From an uncultured Verrucomicrobiota bacterium (GTDB lineage Bacteria > Verrucomicrobiota > Verrucomicrobiia > Limisphaerales > AAA164-E04): a DNA stretch of 64,000 bases. The notes below the pieces were generated by a model, which was given only the letters and a program-made list of their open reading frames with translations, was not told where the DNA came from and did no database searches. How positions within the stretch are numbered: position 1 is the first letter of the stretch; each line of letters opens with the position of its first letter. Positions 1-60,710 of the stretch are shown in pieces. Made by a program: the position numbers and the translations under genes. The stretch covers positions 87,098 to 151,097 of the forward strand of contig CAYFGX010000013.1 in NCBI GenBank assembly GCA_964342405.1, read 5' to 3'.

Positions 1-106
1 GCAACGAAGAAAAGGCTAGGCTGCCGAGAGAGGCCCCGAGGCCGTAGAGAAAATCTCGTCTCCGCAGTGCTGGGTGGTTGGAAAAATGGGCGCTTGGGAT
101 CGTCAT
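1..106 (-). CDS. DUF1501 family protein, N-terminal fragment running out of the window (Tat signal MTIPSAHFSNHPALRRRDFLYGLGASLGSLAF)
   Basis: Reverse-complement of 1..106 translates from an ATG at 106 into a twin-arginine signal (RRRDFLYGLGA), which is typical of DUF1501 proteins. It lies 21 bp downstream of the PSCyt/DUF1553 gene, the usual pairing. Not listed in the ORF track because it is incomplete. Confidence 0.55.
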   Translation of the reverse strand, partial: MTIPSAHFSNHPALRRRDFLYGLGASLGSLAFSSL

Positions 107-127
107 GTCAGATCGTCGCGTTTGGGG

Positions 128-2989
128 TTAGTAAATGTAGGCAAATTCGTTGCTGTTGAAGAGAACAAGACAGAGCTCGGCTAAGGCACGAGTGCTTGGT
201 GAAATGTCCGCCATTTTAGTGTCCGGCTTGAAGTCTTGGAACACTTCCAAGCGCTCAGTGAATGAGAACTTCTCGCCCGTGTTTTCTTCAACCGCTTCAC
301 GCACGACTTCAACGGGATACTCCGGTTTGGGAATGGAGATTCGATCGTGCCGTTGTTTCATATTGGAAAGATGTGCGAGGCACCGCTTTCTCTCGTCGGA
401 TCGAGGGCTTCGATTGAAAGCAAGCCTGAACGCTGTGTCAATGGCCTCGTCACGTGAATCTGAAAGAGACTCGACTTTAAGCGCGAACGCCACGGCTCGA
501 TCGTAGGCAATCTGGCTGTTGAATAAACTGAAAACCTGTGGCGTGACATTGGATGCATCTCGTGATTCGCAGGAAAGATCAGGGTCGGGCTCGTTGAAGA
601 CCTCCATGAAGGGATCTCGGAGTCCGCGAATTTTCTGCATATAGATGGAGCGACGATGCCGCTGTTCGGGAAGCGGGTTGGGTTGCCAAGCCGTCGCGAA
701 GGTGCCCATGACCATGCGGGGTTGGAGTGCAACCTCGAGGTTGATTTCAGGGCGATTGGGAATGCCTCCCATGCTGCGATTGAGCTCTCCGCTGACAGCT
801 AGCATGCTATCCCGCAATTCTTCTGCTCGCAGTCGCCGAGGAGTGAAGGCAGCGTAACTTTGATTCTCAGGATCAAGCCGTCTGAGCGTTTCGGGGTGAG
901 GATGTTGGGATGAACGACGATAGGTTTCCGAGTTCATGATCAGGCGATGCATACTCTTGAAAGAGCCTCCTGAATCACGAAAAGCGACCGCTAACCAGTC
1001 GAGGAGTTTTGGGTGAGTGGGCTTCTTACCGCTTGCTCCAAGATTGTTGGGATTGCCGGCAATCGCTTGTCCGAAATGCCACTGCCAAATGCGGTTTGCG
1101 ATGGCGCGGTAGGTCAGAGGGTTCTCTGGATGGGTGATCCACTTCGCCAATGCAGTTCGACGCTTTGAGATCGTATCGGGAAACTCGATGTCGGCGAGCG
1201 CGGGAACGAGTTCGTTAAGCACACTCAAAGCTGCCGGCGTGACCCTCTCGCCTTGAGAGAACGCATCGCCTCCTGTGAGAATGTGTCCAGCTTCAAGCTC
1301 ACCTTTCTCCCTCGGTTTGGCTGGCATGCGTTGGGGGGCCGTGTAGCCGTTTCTCTTGGGGGAACGTCCAGAGTAGACTGAGAAGGCGACCGGTTCGTAT
1401 CGATCGAGCTTCCATTTGATGCGACCGATCGTCTTGCGGGCGATTCGTTCGCGGCCGAAATCCTCGACGCTGAAGCCGTGTCGCCGTGGGGGCATTTCAT
1501 CCGGTGACAAACCGGCCTTCTGGGCTTCTCCTCGTGTCTGGTATGGGAGATTGCGCTCATGAAACCATTCTCTGATCGCTTTGGCTGATTTCTCATTCAG
1601 CTGCGTCAGCTCGTGCTCTTTGGCCTTCTTTTGGCGAATGAGGTATTTCCGTTCTTCAAAACCAGAAAGATTCTCGTGAGGGAGAAAGGGAGCCTCTCTC
1701 TCAGACAGTTGCGTTGTGTTGAAGCTTGAGTAGAGACTGTAGTAGTCCCTGGTGGGAATCGGATCGAACTTGTGGTCATGGCACTTGGCACATCGTAGCG
1801 TATGTCCGAGGAAGGATTGCCCGACCGCGTTCACCGCATCATCCAAGAATCGTTGTCGTGCGATTGCCGGTACCTCCATCGAGGTCAACTCCCAGGGGCC
1901 CATGCGCAGAAAACCAACCGCGACGAGATGTTCCGGATTGTCTGGGGCGATCTCATCTCCAGCGATTTGCTCGGAGACAAATTGATTGTAGGGCTTGTCG
2001 TCATTGAATGAGCGAATGACGTAATCACGATAACGCCATGCGTTTCCGCGATCGAAATCATTGGCGAAGCCTGATGTGTCTGCGTAGCGAACGACATCAA
2101 GCCAATGACGTCCCCATTGCTCTCCGTAGTGCGGGCTTGCGAGGAGGCGTTCAACGACGTCTGCGAAGGCTTCTGCCTCCGGGCGCGGATCGTTTAGGAA
2201 GCGATCAACATCCTCGGCTTGGGGCGGCAGTCCGGTGAGATCGTAGCTGGCTCTCTTGATCAAAGTCAGCCGGTCAGCCAAAGGGGCTGCGTCAAGTCCA
2301 CGTGTCGAAAGACGTTGATCGATAAAGGCGTCGATCGGCTGTCGGTTAGGCAAGGGCGCGTCAGGTTTCGTCAAAGCTTGGTAAGCCCACAAGTTTTCTG
2401 GGAGATACTTCCGTTGCGTCCACTCCGCCTTCAACCCGCCACTGGTGGCTACCGAGATTCCCTCCGCAGCGCTCCACCTGTCTTCGGTTGATTCCAGTAG
2501 TTCCTGAACTCGTTCCTCGCTAGGCCAAGGCGCTCCCGCTTCAATCCATTCTCGGAAGCGCGCGACCTTCTCGGGTGACAAGCGCTCACTTTTCTTCGGG
2601 GGCATTTGGAAATCCTCGTCGGTCCATTCAATCGCCGTCAGGAGCGGACTCTCGTCAGGTTTCCCTGGTACGATAGCGACCCCATAGTCTCCGCCCTTGA
2701 GAACTCCATCCAAACTTCGAAGATCGAGGCCTCCTTTCAACTTATCTGGGTCGTCCCCATGACACGCCAGGCATGAAGCCGTGATGGTTGGCCAGATTTG
2801 ATGGGCGAACAATGCATCGGCTTCGGAAGATTTCTCGTTCGTTGCTGCGAAGGAGACGAGTGGGGCAAGAAGATAGCCCAAATGGAAGGGCCTTAGGAAT
2901 CGAAAGATTTTGCCTTGTCGCCCGGATGGTAGACGCTTATTAGGTGAAGGCATAGCAGGGATCGTGACGGGAAGTTGCTTGGAATTCAA
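128..2989 (-). CDS. PSCyt1/PSCyt2/PSD1 protein (Planctomycete cytochrome-c domain + DUF1549 + DUF1553), secreted
   Basis: 953 aa. N-terminal signal, CxxCH heme motif (CLACHGDDPDKLKGGLDL), then DUF1549-like and DUF1553-like regions including the conserved CAKCHDHKFDP motif. Architecture is typical of Planctomycetes/Verrucomicrobia. Confidence 0.85.
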   Translation of the reverse strand: MNSKQLPVTIPAMPSPNKRLPSGRQGKIFRFLRPFHLGYLLAPLVSFAATNEKSSEADALFAHQIWPTITASCLACHGDDPDKLKGGLDLRSLDGVLKGGDYGVAIVPGKPDESPLLTAIEWTDEDFQMPPKKSERLSPEKVARFREWIEAGAPWPSEERVQELLESTEDRWSAAEGISVATSGGLKAEWTQRKYLPENLWAYQALTKPDAPLPNRQPIDAFIDQRLSTRGLDAAPLADRLTLIKRASYDLTGLPPQAEDVDRFLNDPRPEAEAFADVVERLLASPHYGEQWGRHWLDVVRYADTSGFANDFDRGNAWRYRDYVIRSFNDDKPYNQFVSEQIAGDEIAPDNPEHLVAVGFLRMGPWELTSMEVPAIARQRFLDDAVNAVGQSFLGHTLRCAKCHDHKFDPIPTRDYYSLYSSFNTTQLSEREAPFLPHENLSGFEERKYLIRQKKAKEHELTQLNEKSAKAIREWFHERNLPYQTRGEAQKAGLSPDEMPPRRHGFSVEDFGRERIARKTIGRIKWKLDRYEPVAFSVYSGRSPKRNGYTAPQRMPAKPREKGELEAGHILTGGDAFSQGERVTPAALSVLNELVPALADIEFPDTISKRRTALAKWITHPENPLTYRAIANRIWQWHFGQAIAGNPNNLGASGKKPTHPKLLDWLAVAFRDSGGSFKSMHRLIMNSETYRRSSQHPHPETLRRLDPENQSYAAFTPRRLRAEELRDSMLAVSGELNRSMGGIPNRPEINLEVALQPRMVMGTFATAWQPNPLPEQRHRRSIYMQKIRGLRDPFMEVFNEPDPDLSCESRDASNVTPQVFSLFNSQIAYDRAVAFALKVESLSDSRDEAIDTAFRLAFNRSPRSDERKRCLAHLSNMKQRHDRISIPKPEYPVEVVREAVEENTGEKFSFTERLEVFQDFKPDTKMADISPSTRALAELCLVLFNSNEFAYIY

Positions 2990-3073
2990 CGTTCGATTTC
3001 GAGGAGAAGGAACTCATTCGCTCTTTATTGTTTCTTTTGAGTAGAGAGCAAAGAATCGAGTCGGTTGGATATT

Positions 3074-3102
3074 TTGACAGAGAACTCTCCACGGCTTAGT
3101 TT
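3074..3102 (+). promoter_or_regulatory. candidate sigma70 promoter (TTGACA-N17-TAGTTT) immediately upstream of the DUF2071 gene; implies a very short leader
   Basis: TTGACA at 3074-3079, a 17 nt spacer, then TAGTTT at 3097-3102. The ATG at 3117 is about 8 nt beyond the predicted TSS. Confidence 0.25.
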
Positions 3103-3116
3103 CAGATAGTCATTTA

Positions 3117-3848
3117 ATGCACCCTTCACTCCATTTCGCTGCTCATCGACCGTGGCCCATTCCTGATGGACCTTGGGTGATGCGGCAAAATTGGTATGAC
3201 TTGGCCTTTATTCATTGGGAGATACCGATCCATGAATTGAGGTCTTTGATTCCATCTTCGTTGGAAGTCGATTCCTTTGATGGAACGGGGTGGATCGGTC
3301 TGGTCCCTTTTGGGATGCGGGGCGTGACGCCGCGTGGCTTGCCGGCGGTTCCGGCTCTCTCCGATTTTCCGGAGATGAATGTGCGGACGTATGTCGTGCA
3401 AAATGGCAAGCCTGGGGTTTGGTTCTTTAGCCTGGATGTGCCGAATCCTTTGGCGGTCTTGGTGGCTCGCGGCTTGTTTCATCTTCCCTACTTTCTCGCA
3501 CAGATGGATCTTCGTTCGAACGGAGACGAGGTTTGCTATCAGAGTCGATATGATCGGCGGGTGTTCCGAGCCAAGTATCGCCCGGAACCTGAACGACCGA
3601 TTCGGTCTCGGGCCTTTGCTCAGTGGGCAACGGAACGCTACTGTCTTTACGCGACGGACCGAAAAGAAACGCTGTATCGTGGTGAAATTCATCACCGCCC
3701 ATGGCCTCTAATGTCTGCTCGTCTCGAGGTGGATGAGAATTCTTATCTCGACCCGTTTCCAGTTGGCAATCGACAGGACGAAGTACTCTTCTCTCGGTCG
3801 ATTGACGTGGTGGTTTGGCCCTTGAGAAAAGTCGAGCTGTCCAAGTAG
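3117..3848 (+). CDS. DUF2071 domain-containing protein (COG3361-like)
   Basis: 243 aa. Motifs WYDLAFIHWEIP...GWIGLVPF...MNVRTYV...GVWFFSLD resemble the DUF2071 family. Confidence 0.55.
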   Translation: MHPSLHFAAHRPWPIPDGPWVMRQNWYDLAFIHWEIPIHELRSLIPSSLEVDSFDGTGWIGLVPFGMRGVTPRGLPAVPALSDFPEMNVRTYVVQNGKPGVWFFSLDVPNPLAVLVARGLFHLPYFLAQMDLRSNGDEVCYQSRYDRRVFRAKYRPEPERPIRSRAFAQWATERYCLYATDRKETLYRGEIHHRPWPLMSARLEVDENSYLDPFPVGNRQDEVLFSRSIDVVVWPLRKVELSK

Positions 3849-11851: not shown

Positions 11852-12300
11852 CGATATTTCTTATCTCAAGCAGGACACTGAACCTCAGGTCCAGTGCGAA
11901 GTGGGACATAGATAGGCCTTTGTATTCAGCGCGCTGAGGGCGCCGAAGGCTGGCATGCTCTGATCAACACTCGCGATTGAGTTCTGTCCTAGCATGTTGT
12001 CCATGGTTGAGATGTAGCAATACCGGTGCCAACTCTAATTCGTGATTTCTTTTTTGTGTCGGTAATTTTGATTTTCGGGGTTGATTGTGTCATTTCAGGT
12101 AGTTCTCAGTCAGAAACTGGGCACGATGCAGTCCAAACCCTGCTTCTTGACTCTTTGGAGCTTGCCAATTTTGCAACACCCACTCGACGGCACGGTCGAG
12201 AGATGGGAGAAGATTACCGCTAGGTGGTAAAAAAGAACCAGTCGTGAAACCAGGTGAGACTAATTGACTCGCTTTGTGAGGAGCGTTGTCTCACTTGGCA

Positions 12301-53856: not shown

Positions 53857-56800
53857 CTAGGCTTGGTGGGGGAGTGGAAACCGAATCACCCATTCTGTGC
53901 CATTGCCCACGGAGGAAATGAGTTCGCAAGAGCCTTTGAACATTGTCGCTCGCTCTCGAATCCCACTGAGGCCAAAGCCGTGCTGCTCCCTAGTTTTTTC
54001 GAGATCTGGATCGAATCCTCGCCCATTGTCCTTGATTCGCAAGGTGATCATTTGATCTGTAATCAGGAGGGTGACGATCACTCGAGTGGCCTCTGCATGT
54101 TTGAGGCAATTGTTCATCGCTTCTTGGATGATTCTAAAGAGGTTGATTTGCTTTTCCGCCGAAAGATTCTTTGGGATAGGTTCGATCTCATGTTCGATCT
54201 CAATCTCACTCGCATCGCCGATCTGATTGAGCATGCCTTGAATGGCTTTCGTCAGGCCGAGTCGATCGATCTGGTAGGGGCGGAGATTGTTGGCAATACT
54301 TCGGACTTCCTGGATTGAGTCCAAGCTGATGTCCGATATCTCCTGAAGTGCTGTCCCCATCGCATCCGGCCCTGTGGGTGTGCGGAGTGTGAGAGCGGCT
54401 CGGTTCTTGATGACGAGGAGGTTCTGTTCGAGGCTATCATGCAGTTCTCTGGCAATCCGTTTTCGATCAGCTTCCTGTCGCGAGAGCATATCTCGGGCGA
54501 AGCGCTCTTGCTCAGTTTTTCGACGCTTGTCGCGACTGATACGAGTAAGGAATCCCAGTGAAACGAGCCCCATGAAACCAAGTGCGCCTAGGGCCTGGAA
54601 TCCCGCTGACCTCCAAATGGCGCCTTCTACCTTGAGGGTTAATGTCGTGTCGTCTTCGTTCCAAAGTCCGCTATTGTTGGCTGCCGAGGCTTGAAACTGA
54701 TAGTTGCCAGGAGCGAGATCTTGCAACACGACTGACTGTTGAGGGCCGATATCGGTCCAATCTGAGCTGATCTCTTTCACGCGATAGCGAAATCGAATCT
54801 CGTCTGGTGCCGAAAAGTTGAGGCCGGAGAATTGAATTTCTATTCTTTCTACGTGGGAAGGAACTCTAAAGGTCGGATTGTTTCGGTGCTGGGATATTGG
54901 GTTTGGACGGCCGTCGAGGGAGAGATTTTCGAGGAGAACTGTGGGCGGAGTCTTGTTCAGTGGGAGAGTTTTCGGGTTTACATAGCATGGTCCCCCGCTC
55001 GTAGCGAACCAGAGATTGCCATCGTCCGTGCGAAGGCTGGAGGGGTGTCCGGCGTTGCATTGGAGTGAGGGAAGGCCATCATCTGTCGAGTAGGAGTTGG
55101 CGAACAAATATGAGATCTCTCCGTTGGCGACGCGATCGAAATTATCGAACGAGACTCGATGGATCCCATTGTAGGAACCGAACCATAGACTCCCTAGATG
55201 GTCATCGATGAGTGTGCTGATCTCATTGGAAGGAAGACCATGCTCGGTGGAGTAGTGCTGAAAGGTGCCGTGGCGGAATCGATAAATACCTTGTCCTCCG
55301 GTTCCAAACCAGATGTCGCCTGATTGTCCGATGGCGATTGCTCTGACTCGGATGGGGGCGACCTGTGAGGCCTTGGAAACGTGTTCGAAGCGATCGGCTT
55401 TGTAGCGGTAAATGCCGTTATCGCCGGTTCCAATCCAGACTGTGCCATCGGGCCCGCAAGCGAGACTCAACACCTCTTTTGTTGGCCGGTTTTCGTAGGC
55501 TGTGAGATCCATTGGCTGATTGTCCTCAATTACAGCGAGTCCCCCATCACTGCTGCCAACCCAAAGCCTGTTTTCCAGATCGTAGCAGGTCGCGACAATT
55601 CGTCTTCCCAATCCGATGTCGAATGCATCAATCGGTATGAAGGCTCCATCCTTGAGTGAAAATGTCGATGCCGATCGGCGGCGTTGATTTGATTTGCTTA
55701 GGCCGGTTGCATATTTTCCACCGAATACGTCTCCCATTTGGTTGGCCGTTAGCGTCCAAATGTCTCCTCTGCCCTGATGGATCGCATTATCAAGAGTGGT
55801 GCCATAGAGCTGATTTTTTGGAATTTCCAAAATTCCTCTAATTGTGCCGAGAAGGAGGTTTCCGGATTTTTTTTGAAGAAACGAACGGGCTTTGGTGCCC
55901 TCTGGAGGAAGGCCGCTGATTAAGCGGAATTTGCGTTTGCGAATCCTGCTGAGTCCCTTGTCAGCTAATGTAGCATTGGCCGTCCAGAGCGTGCCCTCGG
56001 CATCGGTGACTAAAGGTCCGCCAATGTCCAGCGGCGTACTCTGGATGTGGTATTGGCCCTGGTCGTCTGGAACGTAGTGTTCTTGGGCCGTAGATTTGGT
56101 TCTTTTCACCCAAAGTGAACCGTCACTGACTTCAAGGATGCTAGTGGCCTTTTTCAGTTCCTGGTCTTCTTGAATGATCTCACCTGAGATAATTCTTTCC
56201 CCATTATACCTCAAGATTCTTCCATCGACCGCAAGCCAGATGCCGCCCGATCTCGCGGGTGTAGGTCCCGCCGTGATCAGTTCACTTTCGTTAAAGACAT
56301 GTTGGGTGGACATGTTGTCCTCTGTCAGAGTTCCCAACTTATTTCCACGACTCCACCATGTCGTTCCTTGATGGTCCGTTACCGCGGTGAAAGGTGGGTT
56401 CTGTTCCCCGGGCAAAGGTGTGAGAACTGCGTGCTCGGTTGGACGGGCACCCTTCATAGACATGAGGCGGCGCTGTCGTGTGTCACGGTTCAGACTCGAA
56501 TACACCAAGGTGCCGTCGGGACGGATTGTATGAAGTGAAAGGCGTGTCTCTGGATTCGTCCGCAGGCCCGTTGTGCGGTGGAAAGTCCCTTTGCTGTATT
56601 GAATGATCTCGTCTCGCACATTGAGCCACAGCGATCCATTTGCTGCGGGAATGATACCGCTCACTCTTCCATGGGGGAAACCCGGTGTGTTCGCGTCAAA
56701 AACCGTGAACTCTTGCCCATCGAACCGGGCGAGTCCGTAGAAAGTGCCAAGCCAGATGTAGCCATCTGTGGATCTAGCAATACTGAGAATTGGGCTGCCA

Positions 56801-56982
56801 GGGATACCGTCGTTAACGTTCCAAGTGTCTGCGATGTAGCCGCCCTCTAACTCAAAATACGATTTTCCCCTGAGAACTTCTTCGGGGATCATAGCGAGCA
56901 GGAATCCAATGAGGAGTAACTTCAGAATCCTTAGGGCGAGATGACCGGAGTTTGATTGAGGCATCGGTGATGTCGAGACCAT
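53857..56982 (-). CDS. sensor histidine kinase, NarL-type (HisKA_3 + HATPase_c), with large periplasmic two-component-regulator-propeller (Reg_prop) and Y_Y_Y domains
   Basis: 1041 aa. Signal/TM, then repeated WxGTxxGLxxY propeller blades, a Y_Y_Y-like region and a TM helix (LGALGFMGLVSLGFL). HisKA_3 H-box (RIARELHDSLEQNL) and N/G-box ATPase (DNGRGFDP, GFGLSGIRER). Confidence 0.9.
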   Translation of the reverse strand: MVSTSPMPQSNSGHLALRILKLLLIGFLLAMIPEEVLRGKSYFELEGGYIADTWNVNDGIPGSPILSIARSTDGYIWLGTFYGLARFDGQEFTVFDANTPGFPHGRVSGIIPAANGSLWLNVRDEIIQYSKGTFHRTTGLRTNPETRLSLHTIRPDGTLVYSSLNRDTRQRRLMSMKGARPTEHAVLTPLPGEQNPPFTAVTDHQGTTWWSRGNKLGTLTEDNMSTQHVFNESELITAGPTPARSGGIWLAVDGRILRYNGERIISGEIIQEDQELKKATSILEVSDGSLWVKRTKSTAQEHYVPDDQGQYHIQSTPLDIGGPLVTDAEGTLWTANATLADKGLSRIRKRKFRLISGLPPEGTKARSFLQKKSGNLLLGTIRGILEIPKNQLYGTTLDNAIHQGRGDIWTLTANQMGDVFGGKYATGLSKSNQRRRSASTFSLKDGAFIPIDAFDIGLGRRIVATCYDLENRLWVGSSDGGLAVIEDNQPMDLTAYENRPTKEVLSLACGPDGTVWIGTGDNGIYRYKADRFEHVSKASQVAPIRVRAIAIGQSGDIWFGTGGQGIYRFRHGTFQHYSTEHGLPSNEISTLIDDHLGSLWFGSYNGIHRVSFDNFDRVANGEISYLFANSYSTDDGLPSLQCNAGHPSSLRTDDGNLWFATSGGPCYVNPKTLPLNKTPPTVLLENLSLDGRPNPISQHRNNPTFRVPSHVERIEIQFSGLNFSAPDEIRFRYRVKEISSDWTDIGPQQSVVLQDLAPGNYQFQASAANNSGLWNEDDTTLTLKVEGAIWRSAGFQALGALGFMGLVSLGFLTRISRDKRRKTEQERFARDMLSRQEADRKRIARELHDSLEQNLLVIKNRAALTLRTPTGPDAMGTALQEISDISLDSIQEVRSIANNLRPYQIDRLGLTKAIQGMLNQIGDASEIEIEHEIEPIPKNLSAEKQINLFRIIQEAMNNCLKHAEATRVIVTLLITDQMITLRIKDNGRGFDPDLEKTREQHGFGLSGIRERATMFKGSCELISSVGNGTEWVIRFPLPHQA

Positions 56983-57259: not shown

Positions 57260-58354
57260 CTACAATAGGTTTGTTACGCGGTCGGTGAGTCCTTTTTCAC
57301 CGAGCACGATGTTCATTTTGGACGAACTTGCGATCCGTTCGAGAACTTCGAGTTCTCGCATACGCATCAGCGCAGGGTTGCCCTCCATGAGCCGTGCCGT
57401 GTTCATCTGGCTCCGCATCGCTGCGGTTTCTTCGCGTCGCGCGATGACATTGGCTTCCGAGGCTTTCTTGGCTTCGATGACTTTGTTTAGCAACATCTTC
57501 ATGTCTCCGGGCAGGATCACGTCTTTGATCCCAAGCGAGATGATCTCGACTCCGAAGGCCTGAGCTCGCTTTCGCATAGCGGACAAGAGTTCGTCAGCCA
57601 CTGCCGTCTTGTCTGACAGCAATGCGTCCAGGTCGCGTGTTCCTACTGTGCTGCGGAGAGCAAGTTGGGCGTCTCGATACAAAGCCTGATCAAGGTCCTT
57701 CACTTTCTCCGCGCAGAGCTGGGGATCGCTCACGCGGAAGGTCACCATCGAGTTCAAGCGAAGCGATACTTTGTCCGCTGTCATGATCTCCTGTCCACTG
57801 ATGTCGATCACCCGTTCTCGGATATCGATGTACGTGCACGTGAAGTTGCCGACTTGTTTCCAGGCTGCGTAGCGCCCGGGGGCCAAGACCTTCTGGAAGC
57901 GTCCGTCCTCGTAGCAGATGGCTACGGAACCTTCGCTCACGGTGAAGATGTCAAACACATTGGGTGCTTGCGGGCATCCGAGTACGGGTGCGAGTTCTTG
58001 GTGCTCGAATAGACCGCCAGTCACGGTGACTGTTTCAATCCGGACCTTCCGAAAGCGGGTCCAAACCACGTAGAGTCCTTGGTCCAGAATGCCATCGAAG
58101 CGGCCATCAATCCACACCAGCGCACGTTCGTTCTCTTTTAGATCGATGACTTGCGCCGAGTCTCCGAGTGCTCCCGATTTGACGATGAGGTCGAGATCAG
58201 GGTGCCTGAGCCAAGGATCGCGTTGGGATACGACTTCGATACTGCGCTTGGTGAAGCGAGGAAAATTCCAGTAGGTTCCTTGCCCGACGATCTTCTTGAA
58301 CTCTTTGTCCACGAAGACCAATCCCTTTTCGAATGATCGGATTTTCTTTCTCAT
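57260..58354 (-). CDS. SPFH/band-7 (slipin/stomatin-like) domain protein with N-terminal extension
   Basis: 364 aa. C-terminal SPFH core (LALRSTVGTRDLDALLSDKTAVADELL..., AQAFGVEIISLGIKDVILPGDM...) plus a coiled-coil tail. No obvious N-terminal TM helix. Confidence 0.8.
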   Translation of the reverse strand: MRKKIRSFEKGLVFVDKEFKKIVGQGTYWNFPRFTKRSIEVVSQRDPWLRHPDLDLIVKSGALGDSAQVIDLKENERALVWIDGRFDGILDQGLYVVWTRFRKVRIETVTVTGGLFEHQELAPVLGCPQAPNVFDIFTVSEGSVAICYEDGRFQKVLAPGRYAAWKQVGNFTCTYIDIRERVIDISGQEIMTADKVSLRLNSMVTFRVSDPQLCAEKVKDLDQALYRDAQLALRSTVGTRDLDALLSDKTAVADELLSAMRKRAQAFGVEIISLGIKDVILPGDMKMLLNKVIEAKKASEANVIARREETAAMRSQMNTARLMEGNPALMRMRELEVLERIASSSKMNIVLGEKGLTDRVTNLL

Positions 58355-58737
58355 TTCTCTCTCTTTCTTTCTCTTCGTGAGTGCGAAGCAAATTCTCGTT
58401 TGTGCCCCTTGCCTTCAAGAGAACCCGAATGCCGGCCACACTCATGTCGCGGAGCGCTCCTGGTTCTGCGGAGGCTGACTGTGGGGGCTTTGAGGCATGG
58501 GCTTGAACCATTGGCCCAAGCCGTATGCCGTGCTGCCCCCGAGTGCCAGTTCTTCACTGAATCCGTGGCTCGCTTCAAGGCGATCGCTTTGTGCTGCTTG
58601 ATGAGAACGCGAGCTTCGGTAGATCGAACAACGGATTGTTCAGATCCGACCTTGTCTCTTATTCCCGTCAAGCGGGCTCGACACGCGGGTGTCTCTATCC
58701 GGCGCTTGGCTACCATGAGAGGGAATGCACCCTCGGG

Positions 58738-58810
58738 TATCAGGTAAGGGACTCGAACCCTTTACATCTTCGGTGATAACGAAGTGCTCTACCAATTGAG
58801 CTAACCAGAT
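58738..58810 (-). tRNA. tRNA-like gene (73 nt) with non-canonical anticodon loop UUAUCAC (nominal anticodon AUC); possible variant tRNA, pseudo-tRNA or tRNA-like regulatory RNA
   Basis: Minus-strand sequence AUCUGGU-UA-GCUC-AAUUGGUA-GAGC-A-CUUCG-UUAUCAC-CGAAG-AUGUA-AAGGG-UUCGAGU-CCCUU-ACCUGAU-A folds as a cloverleaf. It has a canonical D-arm and T-arm (GGTTCGAGTCC). The acceptor stem has one U-U mismatch, no CCA is encoded, and A34 is unusual for bacteria. Confidence 0.5.
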
Positions 58811-58941
58811 CTGCCAGAACGGCTTCGTCAGAATCCATTCACGGAACACTCAATCTGAAACCTCCACGCACGATCTCGGGAGAACGAACGCTTGTTGGTC
58901 AGTTGTGCGCCGCTGGCCCACCGTCGTGACGTTGAATCGAG

Positions 58942-58959
58942 TTGCAATCCGGATGCCAA
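58942..58959 (-). promoter_or_regulatory. sigma54 (RpoN) -24/-12 promoter, TTGGCAT-CCGGA-TTGCA, reading leftward toward the tRNA-like gene and the SPFH gene and divergent from rtcR
   Basis: Minus-strand sequence CAAGGTTGGCATCCGGATTGCAACTCG matches the consensus YTGGCACG-N4-TTGCW, with GG and GC at the correct spacing. Predicted TSS is near 58932. It is about 170 bp upstream of the divergent rtcR start. Confidence 0.55.
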
Positions 58960-59129
58960 CCTTGAATGGGTTTTTAATGGTGGGCTCTCAAGGTGTTGAC
59001 TGTGAATTATTTGCGTTGATTGGGTTTGCTCCATGGGCCGTTTTTCTAGAAATCGTTGTGTGAGTTAAAGTAGCTGAAAAGATAGAAAAATAGACTGGGA
59101 GATAAGTAGGATAATGTTAGGTTTGATGC

Positions 59130-60710
59130 GTGAAAACGGTTGTGATCAGTCTACTTGGGAGCATGCTCGATCGGGGGTCTAAGGAAGATCGATGGCAACG
59201 TTGGCGGCCGAGTGTGAGTCTGGTTCAGCATGAGGATCTCGCGGTCGATCGATTTGAGCTGTTGTATGAGGCCCGCTTTGAACGCTTGGCCAAGACGGTC
59301 TGCGAGGACATTGCTGAGGCTTCGCCCAAGACGAAAGTCGTCAAACGCTTGATCGCCTATGACGATGCTTGGGATTTTGAACAGGTCTACGCAGCGCTGC
59401 ATGACTACGCACGTGCGGGCGCCTTTAAGCCTGACAAGGAGAACTACCTCATTCATATCACGACCGGAACACATGTCGCTCAGATCTGCCTTTTTCTGCT
59501 CACGGAATCGAGATACTTGCCAGGGAAGTTGATTCAAACGAGTCCACCGAAACGGAAGGGGAAGATTCCTCGGGGGCAATATGACATCATCGACCTAGAT
59601 CTTTCGCGATATGACCGGATCGCTTCCCGCTTTCGCCAGGAGGCGCAGGATGATATCGCCTTCCTCAAGTCTGGAATCCAAACGCGAAACAAGGCCTTCA
59701 ACCGTCTGATCTCAGAGATCGAAAACGTTGGCGTACGGTCGTCCGAACCGATCCTCCTGATCGGTCCCACCGGGGCGGGTAAGTCTCTTCTCGCGAGACG
59801 GATCCAAGAGTTAAAGCGCCATCGCGGTCAACTGGAGGGCAGTTTTGTGGAAGTAAACTGCGCGACGCTCCGTGGCGATGCGGCCTTGTCGGCGCTGTTT
59901 GGACATAAGAAGGGCGCCTTCACCGGAGCGGTCAGTGATCGCCCGGGACTGTTGCGAGAAGCTCACAAGGGAATGCTGTTCCTAGATGAGATTGGTGAGT
60001 TGGGCTTAGATGAGCAGGCGATGCTGTTGCGAGCCATCGAGGAAAAGAGATTTCTGCCCATGGGGGCAGACGTCGAGGTGAAGAGCGATTTCCAACTGAT
60101 CTGCGGAACAAACCGGGATCTGTCTGAGGAGGTTCGGGAGGGAGGCTTTCGTGAGGACCTCTACGAGCGGATCAATCTCTGGACCTTCTATTATCCAGGA
60201 TTGCGGGAGCGAGTGGAGGATATTGAGCCGAACTTGGATTATGAGATCGATCGTTTCGCTGAGAAACACAAGCGTCAGGTTCGGTTTAGTCGAGAGGCGA
60301 GGGAAGCATTTGTGTCCTTTGCGCGCTCGGGAGAGGCGCTCTGGAGAGGGAATTTTCGAGATTTAAACAGTGCCGTTATTCGGATGGCGACCTTGGCGCA
60401 GGGAGGCAGGATCACGGTGAAAGAGGTGAAGGATGAGATCGCCCGGCTCCGAAAGAAGTGGCAAACCTTGCGGCAAGAAGCGACGGCAGAACTCGTCGTG
60501 GAGGTTCTTGGTTCCGATGCGGCGGAGTCTCTAGACCGCTTTGATCGGGTTCAGTTAGCGGACGTGCTGAAGGTCTGCCGAGAATCTCGCAGTGCGGCGG
60601 AGGCGGGGCGAACGCTGTTTGCTGCTTCAAGGGCAAAGCGATCCTCAAGCAATGATTCGGATCGGCTGCGAAAGTACCTCGCCCGGTTCAACCTTAAATG
60701 GCCCGTGTAG
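59130..60710 (+). CDS. rtcR: sigma54-dependent transcriptional activator RtcR (N-terminal CARF domain + AAA+ sigma54-interaction domain + C-terminal HTH)
   Basis: 526 aa with GTG start. Colinear with E. coli RtcR across the whole length (KWRPxxxLxxQ, YLIHITTGTHVAQICLFLL, Walker A GPTGAGKS, GAFTGA, ESELFGH-like LSALFGHKKGAFTGA, NLWTFYYPGLRER, RGNFRDL, DRLRKYLARF). Confidence 0.9.
   Translation: MKTVVISLLGSMLDRGSKEDRWQRWRPSVSLVQHEDLAVDRFELLYEARFERLAKTVCEDIAEASPKTKVVKRLIAYDDAWDFEQVYAALHDYARAGAFKPDKENYLIHITTGTHVAQICLFLLTESRYLPGKLIQTSPPKRKGKIPRGQYDIIDLDLSRYDRIASRFRQEAQDDIAFLKSGIQTRNKAFNRLISEIENVGVRSSEPILLIGPTGAGKSLLARRIQELKRHRGQLEGSFVEVNCATLRGDAALSALFGHKKGAFTGAVSDRPGLLREAHKGMLFLDEIGELGLDEQAMLLRAIEEKRFLPMGADVEVKSDFQLICGTNRDLSEEVREGGFREDLYERINLWTFYYPGLRERVEDIEPNLDYEIDRFAEKHKRQVRFSREAREAFVSFARSGEALWRGNFRDLNSAVIRMATLAQGGRITVKEVKDEIARLRKKWQTLRQEATAELVVEVLGSDAAESLDRFDRVQLADVLKVCRESRSAAEAGRTLFAASRAKRSSSNDSDRLRKYLARFNLKWPV

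Follow-up and report, generated by a model that had tools for sequence, protein, structure and literature searches.

We analysed a 64,000-nucleotide (nt) stretch of DNA from an uncultured Verrucomicrobiota bacterium (GenBank assembly GCA_964342405.1, contig CAYFGX010000013.1; hereafter the window, to which all coordinates are relative), in which a tRNA-like element lies between a divergent rtcR gene and a gene for an SPFH/Band-7 protein. We found that this element is a member of a conserved family of tRNA look-alikes that occur at Band-7/RtcR loci. The main features of the locus are the following.

58738..58810, minus strand: tRNA-like element, a member of the b7a-tRNA (band 7-associated tRNA) family, supported by ARAGORN, the Rfam tRNA model, the family model R1 and conserved placement
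58775..58777, minus strand: 'anticodon' AUC (A34 at 58777, U35 at 58776, C36 at 58775), the hypervariable, non-decoding part of the element
58943..58958, minus strand: sigma-54 (-24/-12) promoter TGGCATCCGGATTGCA, with one mismatch to TGGCAC-N5-TTGCW
59130..60710, plus strand: rtcR, which encodes a sigma-54 enhancer-binding activator; its N-terminal RtcR domain is of the CARF type (Pfam RtcR and Sigma54_activat)
57260..58354, minus strand: SPFH/Band-7 (stomatin-like, 'slipin') protein of 364 amino acids, identified by its Band-7/SPFH domain match

ARAGORN made a single tRNA call in the 64-kb window (58736..58810, minus strand, anticodon atc at position 34), and the Rfam tRNA model RF00005 aligned along its full length (model positions 1-71) to 58738..58810 on the same strand; the score, 61.1 bits, exceeds the gathering score of 29, and E over the entire window is 9e-11. 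Read directly from the minus strand, the RNA is AUCUGGU-UA-GCUC-AAUUGGUA-GAGC-A-CUUCG-UUAUCAC-CGAAG-AUGUA-AAGGG-UUCGAGU-CCCUU-ACCUGAU-A, followed by CCC. The acceptor stem comprises A1-U72, U2-A71, C3-G70, the mismatch U4xU69, G5-C68, G6-C67 and U7-A66; the D stem is GCUC/GAGC, with G18 and G19; the anticodon stem CUUCG/CGAAG encloses the loop UUAUCAC; and the T arm is AAGGG-UUCGAGU-CCCUU. The discriminator is A73, at 58738, and the next letters are CCC, not CCA. All of the tertiary-core nucleotides U8, A14, G18, G19, G53, U54, U55, C56, A58 and C61 were found. The original prediction, which did not state the strand, had described a cloverleaf with good D and T arms, the loop UUAUCAC with an AUC anticodon, a U-U mismatch in the acceptor stem and no encoded CCA. 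Each of these observations was borne out by ARAGORN, RF00005 or direct reading, with A34, U35 and C36 at 58777, 58776 and 58775, the mismatch at U4xU69 and CCC after A73; ARAGORN, one of the checks it had proposed, called a tRNA with the same anticodon. The cloverleaf is the minimum-free-energy fold of the element, but the energy is ordinary (z = -0.85), so the significance of the element comes from covariance models and conservation rather than from thermodynamics. Its sequence was identical across three independent public assemblies of one marine (Tara Oceans) population and is therefore not an assembly artefact. The observation in the window is well above chance.

The regulatory gene beside the element is a true equivalog of the RNA-repair regulator: rtcR scored 800.8 bits against the NCBIfam model NF038308 (RNA_repair_RtcR), for which the cut-off is 650, and 840.6 bits against the PADLOC RtcR model. 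It is divergent from the tRNA-like/SPFH transcription unit. The promoter TGGCATCCGGATTGCA points away from rtcR, and about 135 nt separate its 3' end from the 5' end of the element downstream. From the end of the element (58738) to the start of the SPFH coding sequence on the same strand (58354) the gap is 383 nt, which is inside the family range of 276-844 nt. The element sits in a structured 5' leader of the SPFH gene of about 0.58 kb. Comparable promoters were found 102-150 nt upstream of the tRNA-like element in five RtcR-linked relatives (L003, L008, L016, L033 and L053), and the promoter of the closest relative, L164, keeps the GG and GC dinucleotides. The layout of RtcR, promoter, tRNA-like element and SPFH gene was repeated in 11 RtcR-linked loci and in L164. 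The window locus thus has the make-up of an RtcR-type sigma-54 operon, with an equivalog divergent from a -24/-12 promoter, in which the transcription unit is predicted. Neither rtcB nor rtcA was found in the 64-kb window, and the closest relatives, L164 and L001, are likewise without local rtcA or rtcB. Related loci in which rtcA and rtcB come after the SPFH gene number 11-12, and nine RtcR-linked loci outside the lineage of the window (L002, L003, L008, L016, L020, L025, L033, L037 and L053) have the unit b7a element-SPFH-RtcA-RtcB. A second sigma-54 promoter match, perfect with zero mismatches (TGGCACCGGTATTGCT), lies elsewhere in the window at 12016-12031 on the minus strand.

The SPFH protein has 440 relatives in a species-representative genome collection, and 80 of their loci were fetched. 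ARAGORN called same-strand upstream tRNA genes in most of these, and where lone tRNAs lay 370-600 nt upstream they often had odd anticodons (AGC, AAC, AAG, AGG, ATG or AAT) or loops of 6 or 8 nt. The proximal elements share the body nnnTGGTTAGCTCAgtGGgTAGAGCAccagaCTnnnAAtctggctGTcgCGGGTTCGAnTCCCGTACCAnnn, and a covariance model, R1, was built from 39 of them. R1 recovered many elements that ARAGORN had missed: 71 of the 80 genome loci have a match of at least 62 bits whose distance upstream of the SPFH start is 276-844 nt (median 444), with L026, at 49 bits, as the exception, and the element was also present in 57 of 62 metagenome loci, for which at least 650 nt of upstream sequence was needed. 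It is always on the SPFH strand and upstream of the SPFH start. The window element scored 77.9 bits, within the range of 62-88 bits among the 128 positional orthologues, which come from Planctomycetota, Verrucomicrobiota, Desulfobacterota, Acidobacteriota and others. By contrast, the bulk of ordinary tRNAs from the same loci fell below about 50 bits on R1. About 15 ordinary tRNAs (mostly of Asn, Lys, Ile, Val, Arg and Phe types) reached 56-78 bits, and nearly all of these have seven acceptor pairs.

In the 39 elements, pairing is complete (100%) in the D and T stems and reaches 99.5% in the anticodon stem, each of whose five pairs shows double changes; the D arm is invariant in 39 of 39. Acceptor pair 1:72 is unpaired in 23 and 2:71 in 26. 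Among 113 distinct sequences, acceptor pairs 1 to 7 form in 39, 29, 50, 56, 109, 111 and 110, respectively, such that pairs 1-4 form at about chance level; only two sequences have all seven pairs, and ten have CCA after position 73. In several members, the part aligned by the Rfam tRNA model runs only from position 4 or 5 to 66 or 67. The non-b7a tRNAs in the same loci have seven of seven acceptor pairs. Across the family, the core of the L shape is intact (D arm, T arm, anticodon stem, G18, G19, U54, U55 and C56) and the outer acceptor stem is degenerate. We also observed that the element of L001 (3530-3605; a Limisphaerales metagenome-assembled genome with an SPFH protein 63% identical) combines a seven-pair acceptor stem, in which one pair is G3·U70, with A73, an encoded CCA and the anticodon AGC; it looks chargeable, and its features are alanine-tRNA-like.

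Conservation of the body is not matched in the anticodon loop. The loop is 7 nt long in 99 of the 113 sequences and 5, 6 or 8 nt in the other 14. Among the 99 seven-nucleotide loops we counted 31 different triplets, with A34 in 26% and U33 in 59%. The loop architecture is preserved, because loop length and C32, R37 and A38 are kept (C32/U32, R37 and A38 are largely retained across the family). The closest relative of the window locus, L164, was found by a protein search on a 9.77-Mb contig; its SPFH homologue is 79% identical, and a metagenome scan for closer SPFH relatives found none above 59% identity. At L164, rtcR, the tRNA-like element and the SPFH gene are arranged as in the window, again without rtcA or rtcB. 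Its element shares 65 of 66 non-loop positions with the window element, including U4xU69, A73 and CCC, but its loop reads ACACGAU ('ACG', with C33) against UUAUCAC in the window, so that five of seven loop positions differ against one of 66 elsewhere (Fisher p = 8e-6). Between the same two loci, identity is 62% in the surrounding spacer and 76% in the SPFH coding sequence.

The same pattern was seen in wider comparisons. In gene pairs with an SPFH third-codon-position identity of 0.80-0.90, a standard that is not cleanly neutral, anticodon identity was 0.26, the random expectation, and body identity was 0.97. In a nine-locus clade, positions 33-36 ranked 27th, 38th, 1st and 19th for variability among 533 noncoding columns and differed at 61% of pair-sites, compared with 23.6% at other aligned noncoding sites; about 7% of the noncoding columns were as variable as these loop positions. 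These alignments firmly support a lack of selective constraint on the anticodon triplet and no more than suggest diversifying selection on the loop. The loop, at saturation, changes faster than third codon positions, but it does not clearly outpace the noncoding columns of highest variability, and we therefore claim only the lack of constraint. We also looked for a cis partner of the variable loop, of the T-box or kissing-loop kind. Exact complementary 5-mers numbered 13, compared with 15.8 expected, and complementarity that tolerated G-U pairs was not enriched in any of 12 tests over the leader, spacer and coding sequence. Such a partner was rejected for the leader, spacer and start of the coding sequence, given that complementary sites were not enriched there.

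These comparisons bear directly on whether the element is a genuine though unusual elongator tRNA, either a tRNA-Asp(AUC), perhaps inosine-modified, or a stress-induced supernumerary tRNA. The full-length match of 61.1 bits to the general tRNA model would fit such a role, as would the six of seven acceptor pairs, A73 and CC of the window copy, which a CCA-adding enzyme could complete, the seven pairs, G3·U70, A73, CCA and AGC anticodon of L001, and the existence of stress-induced tRNA arrays. However, L164 carries the loop ACACGAU, with C33, on an otherwise near-identical body (65/66), and across the family the triplets are random, A34 occurs in 26% and loops of 5, 6 and 8 nt are found. We consider an elongator function very improbable. 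Since a constrained body carries a freely changing 'anticodon', and a relative lacks U33, the element cannot decode GAU; 'AUC' is the current state of a freely varying loop and carries no implication of Asp decoding. The original prediction had listed a degenerated tRNA-Asp paralogue among its options, which does not agree with the loop ACACGAU in the nearest relative and the 31 triplets in the family. As a candidate, the canonical elongator tRNA-Asp, with conserved G/Q34-U35-C36 and U33, was rejected on A34 in the window, ACACGAU in L164 and the 31 family triplets, and the canonical tRNA-Asp acceptor, with seven pairs, G73 and CCA, was rejected on U4xU69, A73 and CCC in the window and on family pairs 1-4 at chance. 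The identity elements of E. coli tRNA-Asp include G73 and G34, which the A73 and A34 of the window element do not match.

We give almost no credence to a decaying tRNA pseudogene or a functionless relic of an integrase attachment site. An odd anticodon, an acceptor mismatch, the missing CCA and the status of sole tRNA-like feature in 64 kb are all compatible with decay; against this, the element occupies the same position in 128 loci of several phyla, its stems are 99.5-100% paired with compensatory changes, its non-loop positions are identical to those of L164 at 65 of 66 sites as against 62% for the flanking spacer, and no integrase lies nearby. The relic attachment site that had been proposed from the window sequence is likewise at odds with compensatory conservation across several phyla at a fixed distance from the SPFH gene. 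Both the elongator-tRNA and the pseudogene or attachment-relic readings are contradicted by the family data.

One possible, if unlikely, explanation for the variable loop is that the element is a bait or decoy for anticodon nucleases. The loop would either soak up nucleases as a competitive inhibitor or be cut, and the resulting 2',3'-cyclic-phosphate halves would feed back on the RtcR CARF domain, with an arms race changing the loop. Consistent with this, loop positions 33-36 are at saturation (27th, 38th, 1st and 19th of 533 columns; 61% versus 23.6%), anticodons agree only at the random level (0.26) in gene pairs that retain 83% identity at third codon positions, and loop length, C32, R37 and A38 are kept. 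Proposals in the literature that cleaved tRNA halves activate RtcR, and that YrlA's tRNA-like domain could act as a competitive inhibitor of an anticodon nuclease, point in the same direction. However, saturation is equally expected without any constraint, as about 7% of noncoding columns are as variable, and third codon positions make an imperfect neutral reference. Anticodon loops of tRNAs usually have U33, which is lost in 41% of copies; nor is a nuclease gene linked to the element in the window. A bait function refines, and does not contradict, the model set out below, in which the element is a cofactor of the Band-7 protein.

We found that the tRNA-like domain is part of a larger conserved structured RNA, the parts of which are placed in the window as follows.

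58821..58849, minus strand: conserved 5' leader block GTGTTCCGTGAATGGATTCTGACGAAGCC, from a 34-sequence alignment (A4) and BLASTN between leaders
58419..58737, minus strand: conserved structured RNA of about 320 nt, from the element towards the SPFH start, from collinear blocks and covariation
58734..58719, minus strand: covarying 3' hairpin, directly 3' of the element
58724..58680, minus strand: block A
58598..58562, minus strand: block B
58463..58435, minus strand: block C
about 58423..58419, minus strand: segment D, placed in the window by eye, as automatic alignment gave the non-pairing GACAC/TTCTC

The 5' leader block lies 11-40 nt upstream of the element and has the near-invariant sequence GYGYGTTCCG..ATGGGTTCT..GAC in the 34 sequences of alignment A4, which span several phyla. 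As RNA it reads GYGYGUUCCG..AUGGGUUCU..GAC; it also occurs in loci with a tRNA array before the element, and it is almost identical in L164. Downstream of the element, blocks A, B and C recur in the same order in most of the 71 loci, across phyla. Blocks B and C are joined by long-range helices (GCAC/GUGU, nCGC/GCGn, AGYG/CRCU and GY/RC) that are 94.3% paired, compared with 21-50% in slid controls, and that contain 62 double-change cells, compared with 19.1 +/- 4.5 in shuffles (0/500). A compensatory change is seen directly between the window (AGCG/CGCU) and L164 (AGCA/UGCU). Block A pairs with segment D, just beyond C, through a helix with the consensus GGCGG/CCGCC, in which four of five pairs covary in the family. 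The 341-nt spacer of the window folds at -148.8 kcal/mol, compared with -118.2 +/- 6.2 for shuffles (z = -4.97). No Rfam family matched the leader and spacer, and only the general tRNA model matched the tRNA-like element. The spacers of L001-L080 likewise hold structured RNA (for example, L018 3372-4000). Because another 320 nt of covarying structure follows the element, a functional RNA is suggested.

This structure also speaks to a cis-only role, in which the fold would recruit RNase P or RNase Z, as in tRNA 'punctuation', so that cutting of the leader fixes where the SPFH mRNA begins at its 5' end, how stable it is or how it is translated, and the excised piece would have no separate function. 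The constant strand, the position 276-844 nt upstream of the SPFH start and the conserved leader are in keeping with a processing or stability signal, as is the place of the element as the last unit of Planctomycetota tRNA operons, which need processing; irrelevance of the anticodon would also be expected. However, the element would be a poor substrate for RNase P or RNase Z, because only about three acceptor pairs are conserved in most members. The conservation of the D arm (39/39 invariant) and T loop goes beyond the needs of a cleavage signal, and 320 nt more of covarying structure lie downstream. We therefore regard a purely cis-acting signal as doubtful.

The gene downstream of the leader encodes the SPFH protein. 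Its AlphaFold2 model has a mean pLDDT (predicted local distance difference test) of 81 overall and, over residues 1-178, of 93; the order in the model is three five-stranded beta modules in tandem, the SPFH domain (about residues 181-280) and long helices. The beta repeats (residues 1-178) carry the motif G.Y..W; they had no significant structural neighbours and showed a weak likeness to SPFH N-terminal sheets and to the repeats of the major vault protein. By eye, no hydrophobic membrane segment was seen, and PADLOC matched the protein to no known defence-system model. SPFH proteins form large ring or cage oligomers, and the matched PDB entries are complexes of this kind. As an apparently soluble SPFH protein is genetically locked to a structured RNA, the pair suggests a ribonucleoprotein scaffold.

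The element belongs to a class that had already been predicted. The b7a-tRNA was predicted by Burroughs and Aravind (Nucleic Acids Res 2016; 44:8525), as summarised in a 2018 preprint on the structure of YrlA (bioRxiv 10.1101/312249); according to the preprint, RtcB in certain bacteria is encoded beside a Band-7 protein and a predicted noncoding RNA, and the b7a-tRNA is proposed as a functional analogue of YrlA, possibly redundant with it, that had not been validated experimentally. The window element resembles this class in being called a tRNA by standard detectors and in lying beside a Band-7/SPFH gene; the class is described from RNA-repair neighbourhoods of the RtcB/RtcR type, of which the window has the adjacent, divergent rtcR. 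It also scores 77.9 bits on the 39-element model in the same placement. It differs in that the module in the window is minimal, consisting of RtcR, the tRNA-like element and SPFH, with neither rtcB nor rtcA within 64 kb. Except for an adjacent rtcB, the window element thus shows the testable features of a b7a-tRNA, and it is an additional member of an already predicted class rather than a new kind of system.

YrlA (RF02553; Chen et al. 2014; Wang et al. 2018) is similar in being a tRNA mimic in an RtcR-controlled sigma-54 operon, beside a presumed RNA-binding scaffold protein. The window cloverleaf differs in being linear and complete (tRNA model positions 1-71). In YrlA, the tRNA-like domain is reportedly part of a Y RNA, another module of which is said to bind Ro60. 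The YrlA model gave no match in window 58340-58960 up to E = 5 and only 15.2 bits in the relative L018, against a gathering score of 69, and no TROVE/Ro60 gene was found among the called neighbours; on these grounds membership of the YrlA or Y RNA family was rejected. The original prediction had also offered a tRNA-like regulatory RNA or Y-RNA-like module transcribed from the sigma-54 promoter. Its direction was right, as shown by the promoter TGGCATCCGGATTGCA, rtcR and the b7a family, but the element does not belong to the YrlA/Y RNA family itself. The vault particle, composed of the major vault protein and vault RNA, offers a further parallel, in that the SPFH protein has the order of beta repeats, SPFH 'shoulder' and long helix and is genetically paired with a small structured RNA; the resemblance is architectural only.

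Many Planctomycetota have tRNA arrays, of up to 32 genes in 3.3 kb, that end with the b7a element. The order ...His-[HNH endonuclease gene]-Trp-Thr-Arg-Arg-Arg-Cys-b7a-SPFH is recurrent, and a terminal Trp-Thr-Arg(n)-Cys recurs among L045 (Bythopirellula polymerisocia; 26-3318), L006, L021, L031, L055, L077, L080 and others. The embedded HNH endonuclease open reading frame, of about 210 amino acids, was found in 21 loci. Stress-induced long tRNA arrays are known, and a cyanobacterial array has been linked to a homing endonuclease; the paper on such stress-induced arrays is silent on RtcR, sigma-54 and SPFH. The Planctomycetota loci resemble such arrays in that the b7a-tRNA is the last unit of many of them and an HNH endonuclease gene is often embedded. 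The window, by contrast, has a single tRNA-like element and no array, and the array tRNAs have full acceptor stems and standard anticodons, whereas the b7a element lacks a full acceptor stem.

Taken together, we think that the element is probably a non-decoding tRNA mimic that serves as the RNA partner of the Band-7 protein in a response to RNA damage. In this model, tRNA damage would activate RtcR, and the sigma-54 transcript of the tRNA-like/SPFH unit would be made. Recognition of the tRNA-like domain would depend on the elbow and body, not on the anticodon, and the domain, possibly with the downstream structured RNA, would become the RNA partner of a Band-7 oligomer. The oligomer and the RNA would form a Ro/Y-RNA-like or vault-like ribonucleoprotein, parallel to YrlA with Ro60, that would help to deal with broken tRNAs, for instance through their presentation to RtcB or their sequestration.

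Several observations weigh against this model. The partnership between the RNA and the Band-7 protein is predicted solely from gene neighbourhood, and b7a-tRNAs, including the window element, are predicted RNAs. Because rtcB and rtcA are absent from the 64-kb window, a direct tie to ligation cannot be shown here. The acceptor of the window copy is comparatively good (six of seven pairs, A73 and CC), so that in this lineage the element may be a free, CCA-completed RNA. In many Planctomycetota the module does not adjoin rtcR: near the array-bearing loci, no rtcR was found within 4 kb, or within 10 kb in L165, and there was no sigma-54 promoter between the last array tRNA and the b7a element.

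A broader scheme, which we put forward as rather unlikely, would combine the model of a Band-7 RNA partner with the bait function. Here the element would be an evolving bait whose loop stays tRNA-shaped while an arms race diversifies positions 33-36. Within a Band-7 ribonucleoprotein that also contains the ~320-nt structured RNA, binding or cleavage of the bait would detect or dampen toxins that target tRNAs and act on the CARF switch of RtcR; the Planctomycetota module would be linked to reserve tRNA arrays from which the damaged pool is replaced.

Two further genes of the window seem unrelated to the tRNA-like element. A giant open reading frame at 29227-53124 on the plus strand encodes 7,965 amino acids with HYR and FG-GAP repeat matches (from the public annotation of the same contig), and after it, at 53857-56982 on the minus strand, lies a Y_Y_Y/propeller histidine kinase.

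For annotation, elements of this kind that are recorded as odd tRNAs (Asp-AUC, Ala-AGC, Leu-AAG or 'undetermined') would inflate tRNA counts and imply impossible decoding, and they should be masked as b7a-type tRNA mimics. The family data give a testable definition of the b7a-tRNA, consisting of an invariant elbow, an acceptor of about 3 bp and a free anticodon. They connect it with RtcR in certain lineages and with long arrays of tRNA genes in others, and they place it within a much larger structured leader. Roles of RtcR-type RNA-damage responses beyond ligation by RtcB thereby become more directly testable, and the locus offers a candidate bacterial counterpart to Ro/Y-RNA, and possibly vault-type, ribonucleoproteins.

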